Assembly (NCBI GenBank): GCA_964604315.1
Contig: CAZRYK010000001.1
Coordinates: 2,459-66,458 of the forward strand
DNA length: 64,000 nt
Direction: 5' to 3'
Source: an uncultured Gammaproteobacteria bacterium
GTDB lineage: Bacteria; Patescibacteriota; Patescibacteriia; JACPL01; CAZRYK01
Below are positions 7,728 through 43,920 of the stretch, in pieces. Numbering within the stretch: position 1 is the stretch's first letter; each line of letters opens with the position of its first letter. A program made the position numbers and the translations under genes. Under the pieces are notes generated by a model, which was not told the DNA's origin, did not search any database, and worked only from the letters and a program-made list of their open reading frames with translations.

Positions 7728-7756
7728 TTGACAAAAACGAAATTCAGTGCTACAGT
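7728..7756 (+). promoter_or_regulatory. Sigma70-type promoter (TTGACA-17-TACAGT with upstream TG)
   Basis: TTGACA at 7728-7733, 17-nt spacer, TGCTACAGT at 7748-7756. No plus-strand CDS follows. Confidence 0.5.
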
Positions 7757-7763
7757 ATGAAGT

Positions 7764-7892
7764 TATTTTGGTGAAAAGGCCTCGTTAACCTGCGGTCACG
7801 ACAAGCATGGGGACTATTCTCTGGGTCAAGAGGTTTCGACTTCTTTATTGCATGGAATAGTCTTCTTGACTGCAGGTTAGTGGGGCTTTTTT
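7764..7892 (+). ncRNA. Candidate small RNA: long irregular hairpin ending in a U-tract
   Basis: 13-bp closing helix TAACCTGCGGTCA (7786-7798) / TGACTGCAGGTTA (7867-7879). Inner helix GACTATTC/GAATAGTC. Ends GGGGCTTTTTT at 7882-7892. Confidence 0.4.
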
Positions 7893-7903
7893 AATTCCTC
7901 GGA

Positions 7904-8012
7904 GGGGAAAACCCTCAAGGAAGGGTTTTCCCCTTCCGACGCTCCTCCGACGAAACGTCGGGGTCACTGCCTCCCCTTTCCAAGGTGCCTTGGAGCGGAG
8001 AGTAAATCTCCG
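7904..8012. repeat. Array of four perfect GC-rich hairpins
   Basis: GGGGAAAACCCT..AGGGTTTTCCCC; CCGACGAAACGTCGG; CCAAGGTGCCTTGG; CGGAGAGTAAATCTCCG. Confidence 0.4.
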
Positions 8013-8060
8013 TCCAAGGCGAAGGAGTAAAAAATTTGCAAACGTGAAAGTCCTCTCGTT

Positions 8061-9911: not shown

Positions 9912-10145
9912 AAAAATGCACTCCGCATTGCAACCATACTAAATAATGGAGAATTTGTGAAGCCCTCAAACCAGATCAAACCAGATCGGATCTAAAACCC
10001 CCTCTTGAGATCGGATCTCAAAGGCCCTTTTTGGATCCGATTTCACTGATCGAGTTCCGTACTAAACCAAGTACGGAACTTGTAGTAAAACCAAAACCAC
10101 CCCGACACGAAGCCGGGATGGTCTTTTTTGCGATGCAAAACCACT

Positions 10146-11692: not shown

Positions 11693-12208
11693 CTACTCGG
11701 CATCAACGGCCTTTACTTTAATACTTCGGGATTGCGAACTTGCGGATTTAGGTAAGCGAACGGTGAGAATGCCGTTCTCTAAACTCGCCTCGACTTTTTC
11801 TGTGATCACATCGACCGGAAGGATAATGGTTCGGGAAAACCCGCCCCAATAACATTCCTGGTAAAAGTAATCGTCCTCCAAAACCTCGGTTCCATGATGC
11901 CGCTTACCTTTAATCGTCACCATGTCATGTTGGACAGAAATATCGATGTCGTCTGGTGCAACCCCGGCAATAGTGGACTGAATCACAATGTCATTTTCGG
12001 TTTGATACACATCCACCGCCAGTTGACCTTCATAGCTTTCGGAAAGCCATTCGTCTGATTCTTCTGTCGCGGACGGGTTACGCTTAGGTACGGTATCTTT
12101 GCCAATATTAGCCATATTATCATTTGTAACCGAAACATCGGAAATCTGTTGCATTTCAGGGTTAGTATTTTGATTCAATTTTGACAGTAACATGTCTTTG
12201 CGAGACAT
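11693..12208 (-). CDS. Hsp20/alpha-crystallin family small heat-shock protein
   Basis: ACD region 'GQLAVDVYQTENDIVI...DDIDISV...VTIKGKR...ENGILTVRLPK'. Confidence 0.85.
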   Translation of the reverse strand: MSRKDMLLSKLNQNTNPEMQQISDVSVTNDNMANIGKDTVPKRNPSATEESDEWLSESYEGQLAVDVYQTENDIVIQSTIAGVAPDDIDISVQHDMVTIKGKRHHGTEVLEDDYFYQECYWGGFSRTIILPVDVITEKVEASLENGILTVRLPKSASSQSRSIKVKAVDAE

Positions 12209-12324
12209 AGCGTTCGTTCCTCCTTAAATCCAATAATATTATACCCTGTTTATGGCAAATCGCGCAACCAAAACCTGTGGATGAAAAATGAAAACCGTAT
12301 TCTTGACGTCAATGAACTTCTATG

Positions 12325-12550
12325 ATTACCTATCACCGAGCGAGGGAACACTACACGTTGGGTGCTACCCGAAAGGGTGGGTGGGTTCGAACCCCACATA
12401 GTGGTTCCTAAGATAGGGGCGCGCACGAAGGATAGGCGGGAGGCTCTGAAGCCGCCCTTCTGGGGACGGCTGATACGCCACCCTTGAAATACCGCCTGGC
12501 GCTCTGACAAGCGGTGGACATTGTCCACAATCGCTTCAAGGGATCCCTCG
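12325..12550 (+). ncRNA. GC-rich structured element with embedded tRNA-like T-arm, closed by a P1-type helix; unclassified
   Basis: CGAGCGAGGGA (12325-12335) pairs with TCCCTCGCTC (12541-12550). Canonical T-arm GTGGG-TTCGAAC-CCCAC at 12375-12391. Flanking 9-bp acceptor-like helix GGAACACTA/TAGTG(G)GTTCC. The only ORF here (12250-12555, minus) looks spurious. Confidence 0.35.
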
Positions 12551-12717
12551 CTCACATCCCTTTATTTATTCGAGCACCGCTCGAGGATTTTTGTTTTAAT
12601 CGCCTCGGGGAAAAATGTTACTGTGTATCATATGTGAAATGCCGTGTCAGGTATAAAATCAGCCACAAATCTTCGTCACCACAAAGGACGAAAAATATGC
12701 TATAATGACTTTAAAAT

Positions 12718-15039
12718 ATGGTAAAAAGATCTTCTCCCAAATCCTCCAAACGCTCATGGGGCGGTCCTGCGTCGGTCAAATCGACCCGCGACGATATTAG
12801 CTGGTTTGACCTACACCCGGAAACCACGCGCGGGATTATTGTTATTCTTCTACTTTTGGCCGCAGTCTTAGCGGTTTTAAGCTTTTTTGGGCTTTCAGGA
12901 ACGTTAGGCGCGGGCATTGTGAAAGTCTTATCGTATGCCTTTGGCTGGGGGCGATTTCTTTTCCCATTGATTGTCTTAGTTCCGGCCATCATGCTCTTTT
13001 TGGACGATCGGTTTGAATGGAACTGGAGCAACACCGTGGGCATTGTCCTTTTGGCGCTGTCAATCACCGGCATTTTCCATATTTTTACGCCGGTTGCGGA
13101 ATCGGTAGCAAAGGTTTCTACTGGTGACGGCGGCGGCTACTTGGGCGTCGCGATTTCTTACCCCTTGCTCAAAATCATGGGAACCTATGCCTCGTTTGTG
13201 GTGCTATTGGCCTTACTTCTCATTGCGGTTTTGTTAGTGTTCCGCACGTCATTACAATCGCTCATGTCCGGCGCAGGATTTTTTGCCTGGGTAGGCGATA
13301 TTACGTTAACCGTTTGGGGATTTGCGCGTTCCATCCCGTCCAAGTTGCGCGGGGAAAAACAACAAACGTTTGCAGGCGACGAAAGCGAGAACGAAGAACC
13401 TACAACCGAAGGGCCCTTACCCCAATTTGCGGCGCGCGATTTAAGCGAAAGCGGAAAACTTGCCGTCAGTCAACCGGGTCAGCAAAGCGAAATGCCTCTC
13501 GGGGAACAACCGGCCAAAACGCCAAAGCTGCGCATGCGACTTTCAACCGATTTGCTGGAAACCAACGTCACGAACCCGACCAGCGGCAATATTGACCAAA
13601 ACAAAGAAATTATTCAACGAACGCTCGACAACTTTGGCATTCCGGTAGAAATGGGCGAGGTATCCGTAGGCCCCACGGTGACGCAATATACCCTCAAACC
13701 TGACGAAGGTGTGAAATTATCACAGATCACCACTCTGCAAAACGATTTAGCCTTGGCGTTGGCCGCCCACCCCATTCGTATTGAAGCGCCTATTCCGGGA
13801 AAGTCCTTAGTGGGCATAGAAATTCCGAACCAGAAAGTGTCCATGGTGCGGTTAAAAGAAATTATTGATTCGCAAGTGTTCAAAAAACGCAGCTCTAATC
13901 TTGCGGTGGCTTTAGGCAAAGACGTGGGCGGAAATGCCGTGATAGCGCATTTAGACGCCATGCCGCATTTATTGATTGCCGGTGCCACAGGCTCTGGGAA
14001 GTCGGTGATGATCAACTCGCTCATTGTAAGCTTGCTGTTCCAAAGCGCGCCCGAAGATTTGCGCCTGATTTTAGTCGACCCCAAACGCGTAGAAATGACC
14101 GTGTACAACGACATTCCCTATTTGTTAACGCCCGTAATTACCGAAACCAAAAAAACCATCAACGCTCTGCGCTGGTTGGTTTCAGAAATGGACAGACGCT
14201 ATGAAGTCTTGCAACACGCGGGCAAACGCAACATTGCTTCCTATAATAAAGATGCGCAACAACACATGCCGTATATTGTGCTGGTCATCGATGAGTTGGC
14301 CGACTTAATGGCGGTTGCGGCAAACGACGTGGAAGCCGCGATTGTGCGATTAGCGCAAATGGCGCGCGCTGTGGGTATTCACTTGGTGGTGGCAACTCAA
14401 CGGCCGAGCGTGGATGTGATCACCGGCTTGATTAAAGCCAACATTACCAGCCGCGTTGCCTTTACCGTTGCCTCGCTCATCGACTCTCGCACCATTATTG
14501 ATTCCTCGGGCGCGGAAAAGTTGCTGGGCCGTGGAGACATGTTATTCGTTTCTGCGGAAAGCTCCAAACCCAAGCGGATTCAGGGCGTGTTTGTGTCAGA
14601 CCAAGAAATCGGCCGGGTCTGCAGTTTCTTAAAAGAACAGGGCGAGCCGGAATACGATGAAGAAGTCACGGTGAAAACCGTGGGGTCTGGGCAGTCCGGC
14701 GGCGTCGTCAGCAATGACGACAATAACGACCCCATGTTAGAAGAAGCAACGGAAATCATTGTCGCGGCTGGCAAAGGCTCGGCAAGCATGTTGCAGAGGC
14801 GGTTACGATTGGGCTATGCACGCGCCGCACGCATATTGGATATCTTAGAAGAACGTGGTATTATTGGACCAGCAGACGGGGCAAAACCGCGCGAAGTGTT
14901 GGTATCTAAAGAACAATTTGCCGCCAATTCCAGAGAAGAAAGTGGAAGCCCTGAAGGTGCAGAAACCGAAGAGGCAAACGAAGCCTTTGAAGACACAACG
15001 CAAGAAGAAGAGGAAGAAAACTTTGAAGAAAAGTTTTAG
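12718..15039 (+). CDS. ftsK: DNA translocase FtsK/SpoIIIE
   Basis: N-terminal TM region; Walker A 'GATGSGKSV'; C-terminal gamma domain; 773 aa. Confidence 0.9.
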   Translation: MVKRSSPKSSKRSWGGPASVKSTRDDISWFDLHPETTRGIIVILLLLAAVLAVLSFFGLSGTLGAGIVKVLSYAFGWGRFLFPLIVLVPAIMLFLDDRFEWNWSNTVGIVLLALSITGIFHIFTPVAESVAKVSTGDGGGYLGVAISYPLLKIMGTYASFVVLLALLLIAVLLVFRTSLQSLMSGAGFFAWVGDITLTVWGFARSIPSKLRGEKQQTFAGDESENEEPTTEGPLPQFAARDLSESGKLAVSQPGQQSEMPLGEQPAKTPKLRMRLSTDLLETNVTNPTSGNIDQNKEIIQRTLDNFGIPVEMGEVSVGPTVTQYTLKPDEGVKLSQITTLQNDLALALAAHPIRIEAPIPGKSLVGIEIPNQKVSMVRLKEIIDSQVFKKRSSNLAVALGKDVGGNAVIAHLDAMPHLLIAGATGSGKSVMINSLIVSLLFQSAPEDLRLILVDPKRVEMTVYNDIPYLLTPVITETKKTINALRWLVSEMDRRYEVLQHAGKRNIASYNKDAQQHMPYIVLVIDELADLMAVAANDVEAAIVRLAQMARAVGIHLVVATQRPSVDVITGLIKANITSRVAFTVASLIDSRTIIDSSGAEKLLGRGDMLFVSAESSKPKRIQGVFVSDQEIGRVCSFLKEQGEPEYDEEVTVKTVGSGQSGGVVSNDDNNDPMLEEATEIIVAAGKGSASMLQRRLRLGYARAARILDILEERGIIGPADGAKPREVLVSKEQFAANSREESGSPEGAETEEANEAFEDTTQEEEEENFEEKF

Positions 15040-24416: not shown

Positions 24417-25925
24417 TTAACCAAAGTCCTTAACCATATATTCTTCCTCTAAAGTATACCCCAATTTGCGATAATATTCACGCACACCCACGCCGGCAAT
24501 GACGGCCATGCGTTTAACGCCGAACGCTTTTGCGCGCTGTTCCGCTTCTTCCATCAACCGTTTCCCCAATCCCCGATGTTGGACATGCGTGTCGTGCGAA
24601 CCCGGCGAAATGAGTTCGCCATAGGTATGCACCTCACGAATAAGCGCGGCATTGTGCAATACCGGCAAAAAATGTTTGACGCCGGTAAAGAGTTGGGAGG
24701 GAAAACGCAAACGCAACAACGCATACAGGGTTCGACGATCGTGCGATTCGTAGCTTAAGAAGATTTCTTTTCCACCCGAGGCATTGTATTCGCGTGCCAC
24801 AAGTTCTAGTTCGTCGAGCGTCACCATTTTATTTGCCCGCGGCTCACGACAGCGAATACACGCACAACGCTCGCCACGCTTTGCCATTTCTTGCAACGCC
24901 ACTTGCCGCAAGTTCGTCACGCGCGAACCCGCTTGAATACTTTGGCCCGGAATGTCGCGGAACAATCGCGGAATGCGCACATACGGCGGCACGTATTTTT
25001 TAATCTGCGGAATCATGGCCAACAACGTTTCGGTCGTATACGGTTCAAACTCGCCACGTTTCCATAACTGATGCAAAATCGTCCAACGGTTCACAATGGT
25101 GGGGTAGACTTTTATTTGGTCGGGCTGGTAAGAAGGATTTTCAAATAATTCTTGGAACATGGCAATATCTTTTTCCGGCGTGGCTTTGAATAAACCCGGC
25201 ATCATATGATAGGTGATTTTAAAACCCGCATCTTTAAACAATTGCGTTGCATGCGCAGAATCCTCGGCATAATGCCCGCGACGATTGGCGTCTAAAATCT
25301 CGCGGTCTAAATGTTGAACGCCCATTTCTGCTCGCGTCGCACCCAACACGCGCCATCGCCGCACCTCGTCTTCGGTAACGTAATCTGGGCGGGTTTCCAA
25401 GGTTACGCCAATCACCCGATGCGTGGCAGTTTCATTTTGTTTTTTTGCCTCTTCTAAATTTTTTGACGGCACGCCATTAAATCCATCATAACTTCGCTGA
25501 AGAAATTCTTGTTGATAATCCCACGGAAAAAACGACCATGTGCCGCCCATCACAATCAACTCGCATTTATCTGGATGATGCCCATTGCGTTTTAACATTT
25601 CTAAACGGCTTTGCACCATGCGGTACGGGTCAAAGTCATTAGCCGTCGATCGCATGACCGCGGGTTGGTTAGACAAATAACTTTTGGGCATGTTCGGTTC
25701 CGTGGGACAATAAATACACTTTCCCGGACACGGAAAAGGTTTACTATGAACACCAATCGCCGCAATTCCCGAAAGCGTCCGGATCTCACGGACCTTTAAC
25801 ATTTTTACAAACTGCTCATCTTCGGGCATCTGCTCTTTCTTGACAAGTTGTCGATACGCTTCCAATATGTCACTATTACGCGGTACCAACGTTTTGAGTT
25901 CCTTAGCAACATTTTTTTTCACCAT
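24417..25925 (-). CDS. elp3: Elp3 homolog: radical-SAM plus GNAT tRNA wobble-uridine modification enzyme
   Basis: Radical SAM 'CPGKCIYCP', C-terminal GNAT 'RGLGKRLMEEAE'. Start placed at MVKKNV with RBS GAGGG (ATG 25923-25925). The longer track ORF (to 26171) has an implausible N-terminus. Confidence 0.8.
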   Translation of the reverse strand: MVKKNVAKELKTLVPRNSDILEAYRQLVKKEQMPEDEQFVKMLKVREIRTLSGIAAIGVHSKPFPCPGKCIYCPTEPNMPKSYLSNQPAVMRSTANDFDPYRMVQSRLEMLKRNGHHPDKCELIVMGGTWSFFPWDYQQEFLQRSYDGFNGVPSKNLEEAKKQNETATHRVIGVTLETRPDYVTEDEVRRWRVLGATRAEMGVQHLDREILDANRRGHYAEDSAHATQLFKDAGFKITYHMMPGLFKATPEKDIAMFQELFENPSYQPDQIKVYPTIVNRWTILHQLWKRGEFEPYTTETLLAMIPQIKKYVPPYVRIPRLFRDIPGQSIQAGSRVTNLRQVALQEMAKRGERCACIRCREPRANKMVTLDELELVAREYNASGGKEIFLSYESHDRRTLYALLRLRFPSQLFTGVKHFLPVLHNAALIREVHTYGELISPGSHDTHVQHRGLGKRLMEEAEQRAKAFGVKRMAVIAGVGVREYYRKLGYTLEEEYMVKDFG

Positions 25926-26134
25926 ATTAAAACCCTCGTGCGTAGAAATACTGTTCTCGCGCACGCTTTCTAAACATTTTTGGGCAAAGATTTGATTCAT
26001 TTTGTAAAAATGACTCCGACTGACTTTTCGGCATGAAGTCCTCCCTCGAAGATCAATCATCATGCCCTGCGCTTGCGGCGGAACCTCCGGACGCTTGAGC
26101 AGACTCATCGCCCCGGTATCCATGCGCAAAGCGC

Positions 26135-26932
26135 GTGCATGTGATTGATAGCTTCTCGTCCGGCAATTCATGCCTCAAAGCCATCCTGAGTCATAGTAGT
26201 AATATGAATAACCACATTGCTGAATCGCTTCTAGCGAAAAATACCAGAGCTTACCAAAAAATACAAGCCCATTTTTCGCAAACACGCTATAAACCCTGGC
26301 CGGAATTTGAGGGCTTCAAAAAATATATTAAACCCGGCATGCACATTTTAGATGTCGGCAGTGGCAATGGGCGACTGTTTCAGGAAATCAAAGACATAGG
26401 TATTCATTATACAGGCTTAGATAGCAATGCCTCGTTTATTGACACGGCGCGTCATCAATTTTCCACCCATCCTTCAAAACCCCAATTTATGGTGGGAGAT
26501 GTCCGACACTTGCCGTTTTCTAACGCCACGTTTGATGTGATTTTTTGTATTGCCGTGCTGTATCATCTTCCGTCGTTGACTTTTCGTCAAAAAACCGTAA
26601 ACGAAATGGCGCGCGTATTAAAACCCGGAGGATTTTTGATTATGTTAAACTGGAATCTTTGGCAGAAACGCTTTTGGAAAAATCACCTTCAGGCTATTCC
26701 CTCTATTCTGCGTCGCGATTTAGATGTGGGCGACTGTTGGATTCCATGGAAAAATCCCCAAGGCGTGGTGCAAGCCGAACGATTTGGCCATGCATTAAGC
26801 CTACGCGAACTGCGCACACTTCATAAAGCTGCGGGATTAACTCTCACGGATCTTGCCTACACCACAAAACGGCAAAGCTCGAGTGGCTTTAACGCCAGCA
26901 CACTATTAAGCATTGCACAAAAGATCACTTGA
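26135..26932 (+). CDS. Class I SAM-dependent methyltransferase (Methyltransf_11-like)
   Basis: 'HILDVGSGNGRLFQE'; likely start further in, at M 26204. Confidence 0.65.
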   Translation: MHVIDSFSSGNSCLKAILSHSSNMNNHIAESLLAKNTRAYQKIQAHFSQTRYKPWPEFEGFKKYIKPGMHILDVGSGNGRLFQEIKDIGIHYTGLDSNASFIDTARHQFSTHPSKPQFMVGDVRHLPFSNATFDVIFCIAVLYHLPSLTFRQKTVNEMARVLKPGGFLIMLNWNLWQKRFWKNHLQAIPSILRRDLDVGDCWIPWKNPQGVVQAERFGHALSLRELRTLHKAAGLTLTDLAYTTKRQSSSGFNASTLLSIAQKIT

Positions 26933-39201: not shown

Positions 39202-39768
39202 TTATCCCTTACGCCTTATTTCCAGATCGTACAAAATTTCTTCCATGCGCTTAAGATTGCGCTTGGCGTCATCGAACTTCTGCCGCAACTTGCTGGTTAA
39301 ATTCATCTCTAACATCTGCGCCACCACTTCTTCCACGGTTTTGACACTCTCCCGAACATCGGTCTGGCCGCTCGACACCATTTTGATGGTATGGCGCACA
39401 ATTTCGCCGGTCATGTCTGCTAGACCGCCAAGATATTCTTCGTAAAAGACGTTCATGCCTTTAATGGCCGTAAACGGTTTCTTTTCTATGTGACGCAAAA
39501 ACATCGTAGCTTCGACAAATTCTTCCACCGCGGCGCGATAGCTTCCCTCAAACTCCAATTTGGGGTTTTTAGCAAACGATGTTTTGAGCGATGCTAATTT
39601 TCCCTGCGCCAACGCCAAATTCTTTTTGGCCTGTTGCTTATCGCCACGATGCAGATCAAAAACCGCCCGCTTGGACAATTGCAAAGCTTCAGACGATGTG
39701 CGCACAATGCGATTGCGTTCGCGGTAATAAGTTGCGTGCTCGGTTTTGAGTTTTTGGAAAAGCGTCAT
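39202..39768 (-). CDS. All-alpha hypothetical protein, possibly Translin-family
   Basis: 188 aa; C-terminal pattern 'GGLADMTGEIVRHTIK...EEILYDLEIR'. Weak assignment. Confidence 0.35.
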   Translation of the reverse strand: MTLFQKLKTEHATYYRERNRIVRTSSEALQLSKRAVFDLHRGDKQQAKKNLALAQGKLASLKTSFAKNPKLEFEGSYRAAVEEFVEATMFLRHIEKKPFTAIKGMNVFYEEYLGGLADMTGEIVRHTIKMVSSGQTDVRESVKTVEEVVAQMLEMNLTSKLRQKFDDAKRNLKRMEEILYDLEIRRKG

Positions 39769-42169: not shown

Positions 42170-43150
42170 TCAAGATCGTTTTAATGCGCGAAAAAGCCGG
42201 TATTTTTTCTCGTTCAAGGGAATTTCCTTGGTGTGTTCAAACGTGATCGTACGCCCACCAAACCCTTCTTTGAACTGCGTAATGCCTGCCCAAGTTCTTT
42301 CTTGTGCAGAAGTTCCGGCAACACCAAAAAAATCATAGTTTTGCGCGCCGTGTTTTTTGGCATCGCACATCGCTTGCCATTGCAAGGCGTACGACGCTCT
42401 TATAGTCCTTCCTCGCTCCGATGACGCACCATGAAGATAATATGCGGTTCCGGCAAAAAGAACAAAAATCCCCACAGAATATGTTATGTTGTCGCGACAA
42501 GCCTCGTAGATCCAAAAGCGTTTTGTGTCAGACAATACCTTTTCCATGTGACGATAATACTTATCCGGATGCGCTTTGATGCCTTGGCGCTTGCTGGTCT
42601 CGTGCAAAAGTTTTAAAAAATGTTTTAACGGTTTTCGTCCGGTATGCGCTTTAATTTCTATTCTATAGCGCGTTGCAAGGCGAATGTTATAGCGCGTTTT
42701 GGATTTCATTTGCGCTAACAGTTCTTCTTCGGTCTGCGAAAGATCGACCATGCGCGTTGCCCATGGTTGCATCATGGGACCGGGTTGTGCGCTCGGATGA
42801 TTCCAAACATCGATAGGATCGTAACGCACAAAAAGCGCTTTGCGAAGATGTGCAGCGTCTTTAAGGTATTGCACAAACGTCTGCATGACATCTTCACGCG
42901 AAACGTCTTGCGCGATTTGTAACGGCCCGCGCGGACAATAAATATACCGTTGCCAAAAACGCCCGGGCATCTGAATACCTTGAACAATAGCCACGGTTTT
43001 CCCTTCCACAACAAAAGCAAGCCGGAAGACTTTACGTTTTAAGGATAGCTGAAACTGCCCCCAAGCCCAGGATTGTAAAAACGTCGGGTGCGGGCTTTTT
43101 TGCACCGCATCGTCCCATGTTTTTTCGTCTGTGATGTGTTCAACAATCAT
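42170..43150 (-). CDS. FemAB-family / GNAT-fold peptidoglycan peptide-bridge transferase-like protein
   Basis: 326 aa; 'FLQSWAWGQFQ' FemAB-like N-terminus; stop overlaps the ruvA start. Confidence 0.5.
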   Translation of the reverse strand: MIVEHITDEKTWDDAVQKSPHPTFLQSWAWGQFQLSLKRKVFRLAFVVEGKTVAIVQGIQMPGRFWQRYIYCPRGPLQIAQDVSREDVMQTFVQYLKDAAHLRKALFVRYDPIDVWNHPSAQPGPMMQPWATRMVDLSQTEEELLAQMKSKTRYNIRLATRYRIEIKAHTGRKPLKHFLKLLHETSKRQGIKAHPDKYYRHMEKVLSDTKRFWIYEACRDNITYSVGIFVLFAGTAYYLHGASSERGRTIRASYALQWQAMCDAKKHGAQNYDFFGVAGTSAQERTWAGITQFKEGFGGRTITFEHTKEIPLNEKKYRLFRALKRS

Positions 43151-43737: not shown

Positions 43738-43920
43738 TATAGACCTCACATTATGAAATAGGACTTAGAAATACAAAAACAAGATGAGATGCGACGGGTT
43801 GGAGCAAGAAAAAAGAGGAAGTGTAGCCATAGCTACATTGAGTGTTTTTTCTTGGGAAACCCGAGCAGATCGCTTGCTTTTTGTATTTATGGAGTACTCT
43901 TTCATAGGGTGAGGTCTATA
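43738..43920. mobile_element. MITE-like near-palindromic element with about 45-bp imperfect terminal inverted repeats, flanked by TA
   Basis: TATAGACCTCACATTATGAAATAGGACTTAGAAATACAAAAACAAG ... CTTGCTTTTTGTATTTATGGAGTACTCTTTCATAGGGTGAGGTCTATA. Central palindrome TGTAGCCATAGCTACA. A second copy starts at 63895. Confidence 0.5.

Follow-up and report, generated by a model that had tools for sequence, protein, structure and literature searches.

What is encoded in the spacer between the divergent hsp20 and ftsK genes in a 64,000-nucleotide (nt) stretch of contig CAZRYK010000001.1 (hereafter the window, meaning this stretch at its full length)? An initial annotation had described at this site a GC-rich element with a canonical transfer RNA (tRNA) T arm and a closing P1-type helix, and had considered a permuted or two-piece transfer-messenger RNA (tmRNA), a tRNA-derived regulatory RNA, or a novel element. 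All the features that it described are present in the sequence, with small corrections to the coordinates. We found that the element spans approximately 12334-12597 on the plus strand (about 260 nt), because a terminator extends it beyond the end given at first. As judged from sequence, its GC-rich domain is a copy or mimic of the L1 stalk of 23S ribosomal RNA (rRNA).

The L1 stalk is the arm of 23S rRNA that binds the ribosomal protein uL1 and grips the elbow of the exiting tRNA. We searched the element alone (267 nt) against Rfam using cmscan in its expectation value (E-value) mode, in which the filters are laxer for short inputs. The bacterial large subunit (LSU) model LSU_rRNA_bacteria (RF02541) matched 12424-12498 on the plus strand only, over model positions 2135-2206, with 34.3 bits and an E-value of 3.9e-9. 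A repeat scan gave 2.3e-9, and the value rescaled by us to the whole window was still approximately 1e-6. The match was seen neither in the whole-window Rfam scan nor in an E-value scan of 521 nt, and became visible at 267 nt or less, indicating that Infernal filters can lose short rRNA-like domains. Rfam reported no other LSU similarity within the window, and two other strongly folding spacers (7740-8060 and 9912-10145), scanned in the same manner, gave no rRNA-like match; the element is therefore not part of a general scatter of rRNA debris. Residue numbering was taken from the annotated Escherichia coli 23S rRNA and then from direct alignments, which, together with the Rfam match, defined the following parts.

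12416-12506, plus strand: L1-stalk mimic of about 91 nt, from the Rfam match and alignments to E. coli and another 23S rRNA
12416-22/12499-505 plus 12424-25/12497-98, plus strand: short H76-like stem containing G-U pairs
G12427 and its surroundings: stalk-head loop CGAAGGAUA, counterpart of the E. coli loop U2111-A2119, with G12427 equivalent to E. coli G2112
12435-39/12492-96, plus strand: H77, GGCGG/CCGCC (E. coli GGUGG/CCACC)
12442-12479, plus strand: H78, including a hairpin at 12450-71
12451-12470, plus strand: hairpin GCCGCCCTTCTGGGGACGGC (RNA form GCCGCCCUUCUGGGGACGGC) within H78
A12487 and its surroundings: segment UUGAAAUA in the 3' part of the stalk head, with A12487 equivalent to E. 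coli A2169

The residues of the head that are kept relative to both E. coli and the second 23S rRNA are AGGAUAGG, GGGAGGCU, UGAAG, GCCA, and CCUUGAAAUACC, the last being the conserved segment in which A12487 aligns with A2169. In H77, one U-A pair of E. coli is replaced by C-G, so that both sides of the pair are changed. The homologous segment is one complete hairpin domain, bounded by the closing pairs at the top of H76; below it, a 7-bp stem of non-rRNA sequence with two G-U pairs (12416-22/12499-505) stands in place of the longer G-U-rich H76 of rRNA. The flanks do not align with the lower stem of E. coli H76, H75, or H79, and the similarity is confined to model positions 2135-2206; membership in a 23S rRNA gene or pseudogene was rejected on this ground. 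The domain thus contains H77, H78, the two T-loop segments, and the equivalents of G2112 and A2169, with a single deviation from the stalk-head fold, an insertion of three nucleotides. In ribosomes, the G2112-A2169 pair stacks on the elbow pair G19-C56 of the tRNA (PMC5309774). Three RNA devices are known to recognize the tRNA elbow through interdigitated T-loops, the stalk head being one of them; this elbow-binding arrangement is recurrent, and more examples have been anticipated (PMC4810234).

The 5' part of the element contains the 64-nt tRNA-like structure that had been noted earlier, with a 9-bp acceptor-like helix, a hairpin, and a textbook T arm, and we located it at 12345-12408. Its parts are as follows.

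12345-12408, plus strand: tRNA-like cloverleaf of 64 nt without an anticodon loop
12345-53/12399-12408, plus strand: acceptor-like helix, GGAACACTA (RNA form GGAACACUA) paired with TAGTG(G)GTTCC, with G12404 bulged
12354-64, plus strand: D-like hairpin CAC-GUUGG-GUG, 3 bp
12365-80, plus strand: GAAA-capped stem of 5-6 bp
12381-97, plus strand: T arm GUGGG-UUCGAAC-CCCAC

The isolated 64 nt adopted exactly this cloverleaf as the minimum free energy (MFE) structure (-26.5 kcal/mol), and the cloverleaf reappeared in the whole RNA when the L1-like fold and the T arm alone were enforced. The nucleotides that form the tRNA elbow are present, namely, G53-C61, U54, U55, C56, G57 (R57), A58, and a GG in the D-like loop. 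The module departs from tRNA in the size of this loop (5 nt), in the bulged 9-bp acceptor-like helix, and in the GAAA tetraloop at the place of the anticodon loop. It received no call from ARAGORN, which reported six ordinary tRNAs elsewhere in the window, and no match to the Rfam tRNA model (RF00005); its identity as a tRNA was rejected for these reasons, the tetraloop replacing the usual 7-nt anticodon loop. The module matches none of the tRNAs of the window. Between the GAAA loop (12371) and the end of the T arm, the sequence is similar to the variable arm and T arm of class II tRNAs, and the only BLAST matches were phage tRNA-Ser genes.

A tmRNA in one-piece, permuted, or two-piece form had been considered on account of the T arm, the acceptor-like helix, and a short frame that begins with Ala and ends with LAL. 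ARAGORN, which detects permuted forms, made no such call in the window, and the tmRNA-clan models run with Infernal gave no match at the gathering threshold, nor at an E-value of up to 10 on the isolated element. The acceptor-like helix, with A3-U70 in place of G3-U70, lies internally, is followed by UAAGAU, and lacks CCA; the T arm is internal as well, and the tRNA-like domain is contiguous. The frame does exist (ADTPPLKYRLAL and a stop at 12469-12507), but it is an artefact, because these nucleotides make up the 3' strand of the L1-stalk-like domain, with the universally conserved UUGAAAUACC among them, and do not represent a tag region. The element thus lacks every defining feature of tmRNA for which we looked (detection by models, acceptor end with CCA, and tag region), leaving any form of tmRNA with a close to negligible probability.

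Other identities fared similarly. The whole-window Rfam scan returned nothing for the element at gathering thresholds, and there was no Rfam match at an E-value of up to 10 for RNase P, signal recognition particle, and 6S RNA, all three proposed at the outset as checks, or for T-box, Y RNA, ribozymes, and riboswitches. A bacterial Y RNA (YrlA) was rejected in the absence of a Y RNA family match and of a TROVE domain in the window. The 101-amino-acid (aa) open reading frame (ORF) on the minus strand, which had been suspected to be spurious, indeed belongs to no Pfam family and has no homologue in 1.84 billion representatives searched by full HMMER, and none of the six reading frames has a homologue among 5.8 billion proteins in a word-indexed search; a protein-coding reading was rejected, since neither this ORF nor any of the six frames has a Pfam family or homologue. 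A repeat or miniature inverted-repeat transposable element (MITE) was rejected because the element occurs once in the window: BLAST found no second copy, and a covariance model found none of the module. The fallback proposal of a tRNA-derived regulatory RNA or a novel element therefore holds in spirit, as the cloverleaf folds by itself and no curated family matches the whole.

The two domains are part of a larger arrangement. The order on the plus strand is P1, the cloverleaf, a 7-nt linker, the L1-stalk mimic, a hairpin at 12510-35, the 3' strand of P1, 15 nt, and the terminator. The remaining parts and the surrounding features are as follows.

11693-12208, minus strand: hsp20 (HSP20), upstream flank of the element
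12303-12308 and 12321-12326, plus strand: possible promoter, TTGACG and TATGAT, read from the sequence
12338-12347, plus strand: 5' strand of P1, GAGCGAGGGA, an inverted repeat with a base-pair probability of about 1.0
12510-12535, plus strand: hairpin AGCG-GUGGAC-AUU-GUCCAC-AAU-CGCU, with base-pair probabilities of 0.9-1.0
12544-12553, plus strand: 3' strand of P1, TCCCTCGCTC (RNA form UCCCUCGCUC), the perfect complement of GAGCGAGGGA
12569-12597, plus strand: intrinsic terminator, stem UUCGAGC/GCUCGAG with loop ACC, followed by GAUUUUUGUUUU
12697-12705, plus strand: extended -10 box of ftsK, TGCTATAAT, outside the element and 12 nt ahead of the ATG at 12718
12718-15039, plus strand: ftsK (FtsK), downstream flank of the element

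The pairing of P1 is perfect, but it comprises 10 bp rather than 11 (the leading C faces A), and its strands start 206 nt apart rather than 215 nt. Because the last 3 nt of the 5' strand overlap the acceptor-like helix, P1 amounts to 7-10 bp. By our own estimate, approximately 0.1-0.3 perfect inverted repeats of 10 bp are expected by chance in a spacer of 510 nt. The hairpin at 12510-12535 has no family match. A 236-nt stretch on the plus strand folded better than 200 of 200 dinucleotide shuffles (z = -3.4), and the minus strand of the element folded less well (z = -1.95); the halves of the element, folded separately, were unremarkable (z = -1.8 and -1.3). Thermodynamics alone would leave the finding open, and the part that, on the sequence evidence, is clearly beyond chance is the rRNA homology of 12424-12498. 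The terminator is the only terminator-like site in 12100-12800 and starts 15 nt past P1. Since ftsK has its own -10 box past the terminator, with a TATAAT box at the equivalent place in the relatives L003 and L077, the element lies outside the ftsK transcription unit. The leader of ftsK itself appears to be very short or missing, as TGCTATAAT lies 12 nt from the ATG and there is no Shine-Dalgarno sequence. A 10-nt exact inverted match, ATGTTACTGT, between the DNA after the terminator and the first hsp20 codons (12604-12624 versus 12184-12204; 21 nt, 76%) was examined as an inverted copy of the hsp20 5' end; it was not significant, as 24 of 500 shuffles scored equally well.

The homologues of FtsK and Hsp20 placed the window in Patescibacteria (candidate phyla radiation, CPR), close to Candidatus Kerfeldbacteria. 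The spacer of approximately 510 nt lies in a housekeeping neighborhood (ruvB, vanW, hsp20, ftsK, a RodZ-like helix-turn-helix gene, recA, efp, ssb, and rpsF), and the gene order is syntenic with L003 and L077. An independent Logan assembly was identical to the window across the 424 nt that it covered, indicating that the sequence of the element is real and no assembly artefact.

The terminator 15 nt past P1, the better folding of the plus strand, and the separate -10 box of ftsK point to a small RNA. We tentatively favor, with a little less than even confidence, the view that the element is an independently transcribed, lineage-specific, functional small RNA with an L1-stalk mimic. Beyond the directly established features, namely, the homology and strand of the 3' domain, the terminator, the ftsK -10 box, and the lack of tmRNA or tRNA signatures and of coding potential, we infer its transcription, uL1 binding, intramolecular docking, and regulatory outcome. 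In the proposed mechanism, two mimics of the translation machinery would emerge from one junction closed by P1. The 5' domain would be a tRNA-like cloverleaf that keeps the elbow nucleotides and has a GAAA tetraloop for the anticodon loop, and the 3' domain would be a copy of the L1-stalk head on a shortened H76 that keeps the nucleotides of the uL1-binding site and of the interdigitated T-loops. Isolated L1-stalk fragments, like the L1 operator on L11/L1-operon mRNAs, bind uL1, and the rRNA-like domain might bind free uL1 in the same way. The tRNA-like elbow of the molecule may dock in cis onto the stalk head with its uL1, and the resulting compact particle would look like an L1 stalk with a deacylated tRNA in its grip. 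An RNA of this kind could work in trans, as a reservoir or decoy for uL1 or some other factor recognizing the same surface. The more specific idea that the element is a self-contained mimic of the E-site grip, in which the T-loop platform of G12427-A12487 and bound uL1 hold the RNA's own tRNA-like elbow intramolecularly, is doubtful on present evidence.

To our knowledge, a stand-alone RNA that combines a tRNA-like module with an L1-stalk mimic is unprecedented, and our literature searches brought up no account of a small RNA uniting the two. Compared with the L1 stalk itself (H76-H78, RF02541 2135-2206), the element has a homologous segment at 12424-12498 with the G2112/A2169 equivalents, H77, the H78 hairpin, and a G-U-containing stem; however, its H76-like stem has approximately 9 bp instead of approximately 18 bp, its head carries the UAC insertion, and the domain lies outside an rRNA gene, within a 220-nt RNA that also has a tRNA-like domain. 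Autoregulation by L1 works by rRNA mimicry, and, as far as we know, mimicry of the uL1 site has been described only in the form of short cis-acting operators in mRNAs of ribosomal proteins. Like the uL1 operators on the L11/L1-operon mRNAs of bacteria and archaea, the element is an rRNA-mimicking uL1 site off the ribosome, and the proposed titration of uL1 is the same. By contrast, those operators are short partial mimics, placed within the rplK-rplA operon or its leader, that control translation in cis, whereas the element has the whole stalk head, its own terminator, and a fused tRNA-like module, with no rplA or rplK found nearby. Its neighbors are hsp20 and ftsK, and the scanned ORFs contain no Ribosomal_L1 or L11 domain, so that its location is not that of a cis-acting uL1 operator.

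We know of elbow-binding RNA platforms only with a tRNA supplied in trans. T-box Stem I and the specificity domain of RNase P (PMC4810234) share with the element an elbow-binding platform and a tRNA-shaped partner, the element having the L1-stalk version of the platform. Their tRNA is a separate molecule, whereas the tRNA-like partner of the element is in cis, and the element lacks a specifier, an antiterminator, a catalytic domain, and an Rfam match to them. YrlA is also a stand-alone RNA with paired 5' and 3' ends and an internal module in which a canonical T arm and a D-like loop occur without an anticodon loop. In YrlA, however, the terminal stem stands at the position of the anticodon stem and a cap closes the acceptor stem, the reverse of the arrangement in the element; YrlA also has no rRNA-like domain, and no Ro/TROVE gene was found in the window. 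With tmRNA, the element shares a T arm and an acceptor-like helix joined to a second structured domain, but none of the defining features tested above. If the mimic of the E-site grip were true, it would add to the natural uses of the motif known from the ribosome, RNase P, and T-box, and would be the first intramolecular one; it would also be the first stand-alone small RNA to recombine an rRNA domain with a tRNA-like domain, found in a CPR bacterium, a group with already unusual ribosomes. A stand-alone RNA with an entire L1-stalk head beside a tRNA-like elbow would provide a natural minimal model of the contact between the L1 stalk and E-site tRNA and possibly a trans-acting regulator of uL1 or of factors that read that surface, and it would show that new RNA genes arise through domain shuffling of the translation apparatus.

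Several observations weigh against a functional small RNA of this kind, and part of them favor its main rival, a non-functional chimera in which a rearrangement-prone spacer took up two pieces of DNA, the L1-stalk hairpin of 23S rDNA and one derived from tRNA, that are not yet decayed. In this view, P1 and the terminator would be coincidental or would remain from something else. We regard the chimera as unlikely but as an explanation to be taken seriously. The element was not found at the syntenic site in any of the five relatives examined, the closest of which were compared as short Logan contigs. In L077, the hsp20-ftsK spacer is 144 nt long; in L003, a gene for a 307-aa protein occupies the site; in L020 (88% identical), a NUDIX gene adjoins hsp20; and in L078 and L082, rpoBC lies directly upstream of ftsK, with rpoC adjoining. 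The initial annotation had named absence from close relatives as grounds for doubt; the absence is real, but it does not make the feature unreal, and the comparison indicates that the element is a lineage-specific addition at a rearrangement-prone site; its position at such a breakpoint counts in favor of a chimera. The sequence is the only one known, together with its identical copy, so that there is neither covariation nor evidence of selection. Pattern scans of large DNA collections found no homologue, although they used a narrow pattern of the tRNA module designed before the rRNA homology was known and therefore tested absence elsewhere only weakly. The alignments covered the 23S rRNA of E. 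coli and one other 23S rRNA, and the segment could be a recent neutral copy of the organism's own. The TTGACG and TATGAT boxes are just 12 nt apart, leaving at most one of them with a poor partner, and a consensus promoter scan called none at 12303-12326. The thermodynamic support for each half is modest, and a 10-bp repeat is not very improbable in such a spacer. The acceptor-like helix, in competition with 3 bp of P1 and with a local hairpin, is missing from the MFE structure given by RNAfold. The MFE is -108 kcal/mol against -96 kcal/mol for the homology-based fold, some 12 kcal/mol in favor of the other fold; such a gap is expected, as nearest-neighbor energies do not reward tertiary T-loops. 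In the stalk head, UAC (12474-76) is inserted between the 3' side of H78 and the G-C stem below. The 5-nt D-like loop and the gap of 1-3 nt between the T stem and the acceptor-like helix mean that a true tRNA-like L-shape is not assured. Among the window ORFs scanned, no rplA or rplK gene (Ribosomal_L1 and L11 domains) was found, and a preprint reports that uL1 is altogether absent in some CPR lineages (bioRxiv 10.1101/2022.01.07.475337). On the other side, the rRNA-like segment is one exact, complete hairpin domain, prolonged by a non-rRNA stem, rather than an arbitrary slice, and the tRNA-like part has both acceptor strands, a D hairpin of its own, and a tetraloop, which makes it no simple fragment and unlike the tRNAs of the window. 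All the parts lie on the same strand, nested in P1, with the only terminator of the region within 15 nt, and the two other spacers scanned yielded nothing rRNA-like. If the element were neutral debris after all, it would mean that CPR genomes can capture rRNA and tRNA fragments that mislead motif-based readers.

Three further explanations retain parts of the same evidence. The tRNA-like module could be a processing signal or product, cut by RNase P and a 3' endonuclease like the tRNAs in rRNA operons or mascRNA, and the cuts would yield an L1-stalk mimic of defined ends, a 64-nt mini-tRNA to which CCA is added, or both. In a variant, the mini-tRNA might be aminoacylated and serve a purpose other than translation, with the FemAB-family transferase (42170-43150) as one possible user. 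The cloverleaf with its canonical T arm, the class II-like stretch from the GAAA loop to the T arm with its phage tRNA-Ser matches, and a 5' leader of just about 10 nt would suit processing, and the tRNA-Ser-like GGAA acceptor start with the long arm, as well as the presence of a FemAB-family gene in the window, would suit aminoacylation. However, CCA is not encoded and the base following the helix is U, the bulged 9-bp helix lies 1-3 nt from the T stem, no tRNA model scores the module, the FemAB gene is 30 kb distant, and P1 links the 5' leader with the distant 3' end, a pairing more in keeping with one folded unit than with cleaved pieces; processing is accordingly improbable. Slightly less probable still is that the element forms a leader of ftsK acting in cis as an attenuator, where uL1 or a tRNA elbow, by binding to the L1-like domain, would select the terminator at 12569-12597 or read-through. 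The element does lie upstream of ftsK on the same strand with a terminator at its end, AUCC(C)UCG of the 3' strand of P1 offers a potential pairing partner for CGAGGAU in the 3' half of the terminator, and rRNA mimics that bind ribosomal proteins are classically cis-regulatory. Yet this alternative pairing has just 7 bp with a bulge, the 120-nt gap between terminator and ATG holds the extended -10 box, whose position is conserved in relatives without the element, the ftsK genes of the five relatives have no such leader, and no link between ftsK and uL1 is known. If the 23S rRNA were fragmented and the element encoded the piece that contributes the L1 stalk to the ribosome in trans, this would account for a complete stalk-head sequence outside any rRNA gene, and reduced CPR ribosomes are known, according to the same preprint (bioRxiv 10.1101/2022.01.07.475337). 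This reading is highly improbable, because the element itself closes the H76-like stem, which P1 encloses in turn, leaving no strands free to pair with H75 or H79, a tRNA-like domain is attached, and close relatives lack the element.

We also examined other sequences that could bear on the origin or distribution of the element. A remnant of the 307-aa gene of L003 was rejected for lack of similarity. A relic of an rplKAJL-rpoBC leader, considered because rpoBC directly precedes ftsK in some relatives, found no support, and L084 has no ribosomal protein genes before rpoB. The pattern scans gave 12 matches in genome_contigs and 27 in metagenome_contigs, all of them noise, class II tRNAs, or 3' fragments of tRNAs; the viral scans returned tRNA genes or noise, nothing, or real or partial 23S rRNA. 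The best covariance-model match in the relatives (L077 1274-1337, 18.8 bits) is a terminator with a palindromic operator upstream of vanW and not a homologue. In this Kerfeldbacteria relative, 1274-1300 on the minus strand is a perfect palindrome, TGCAGGGTT-G-AACCCTGCA, directly upstream of a vanW-like gene, and looks like an operator.

Four sites in metagenome and Acidobacteriia contigs (L058 404-441, L067 2071-2108, L024 6012-6049, and L054 707-797) have the appearance of tRNAs in which a GCA anticodon loop is combined with a long variable arm; ARAGORN called just the one in L054, as a 91-nt tRNA-Cys. These sequences resemble the unusual genes of the allo-tRNA type known from the literature. 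The end of a viral contig from IMG/VR (IMGVR_UViG_3300000032_000059; L080 1-92) carries a 23S-type L1-stalk sequence, GUGUAGGAUAGGUGGGAGGC...UUGAAAUACCACCC, and its upstream flank does not look like 23S rRNA and contains a hairpin; an integration junction, a chimeric assembly, and a further isolated copy of the L1 stalk are all conceivable here.

The window also encodes, on the minus strand, a Translin-family protein (PF01997, unusual in bacteria; 39202-39768), an Elp3-like radical-SAM protein of 584 aa (Radical_SAM and Radical_SAM_C; 24417-26171), and the FemAB-family aminoacyl-tRNA-dependent transferase (42170-43150), which belong to families whose characterized members act on tRNA or other RNA. 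Three spacers (7770-8030, 9975-10085, and 43750-43900) contain very long, near-perfect hairpins of up to approximately 60 bp with z = -8 to -10, far stronger than the element under study. Rfam reported nothing significant in the two of these spacers that were scanned, and the hairpins may be palindromic or MITE-like elements or bidirectional terminators.

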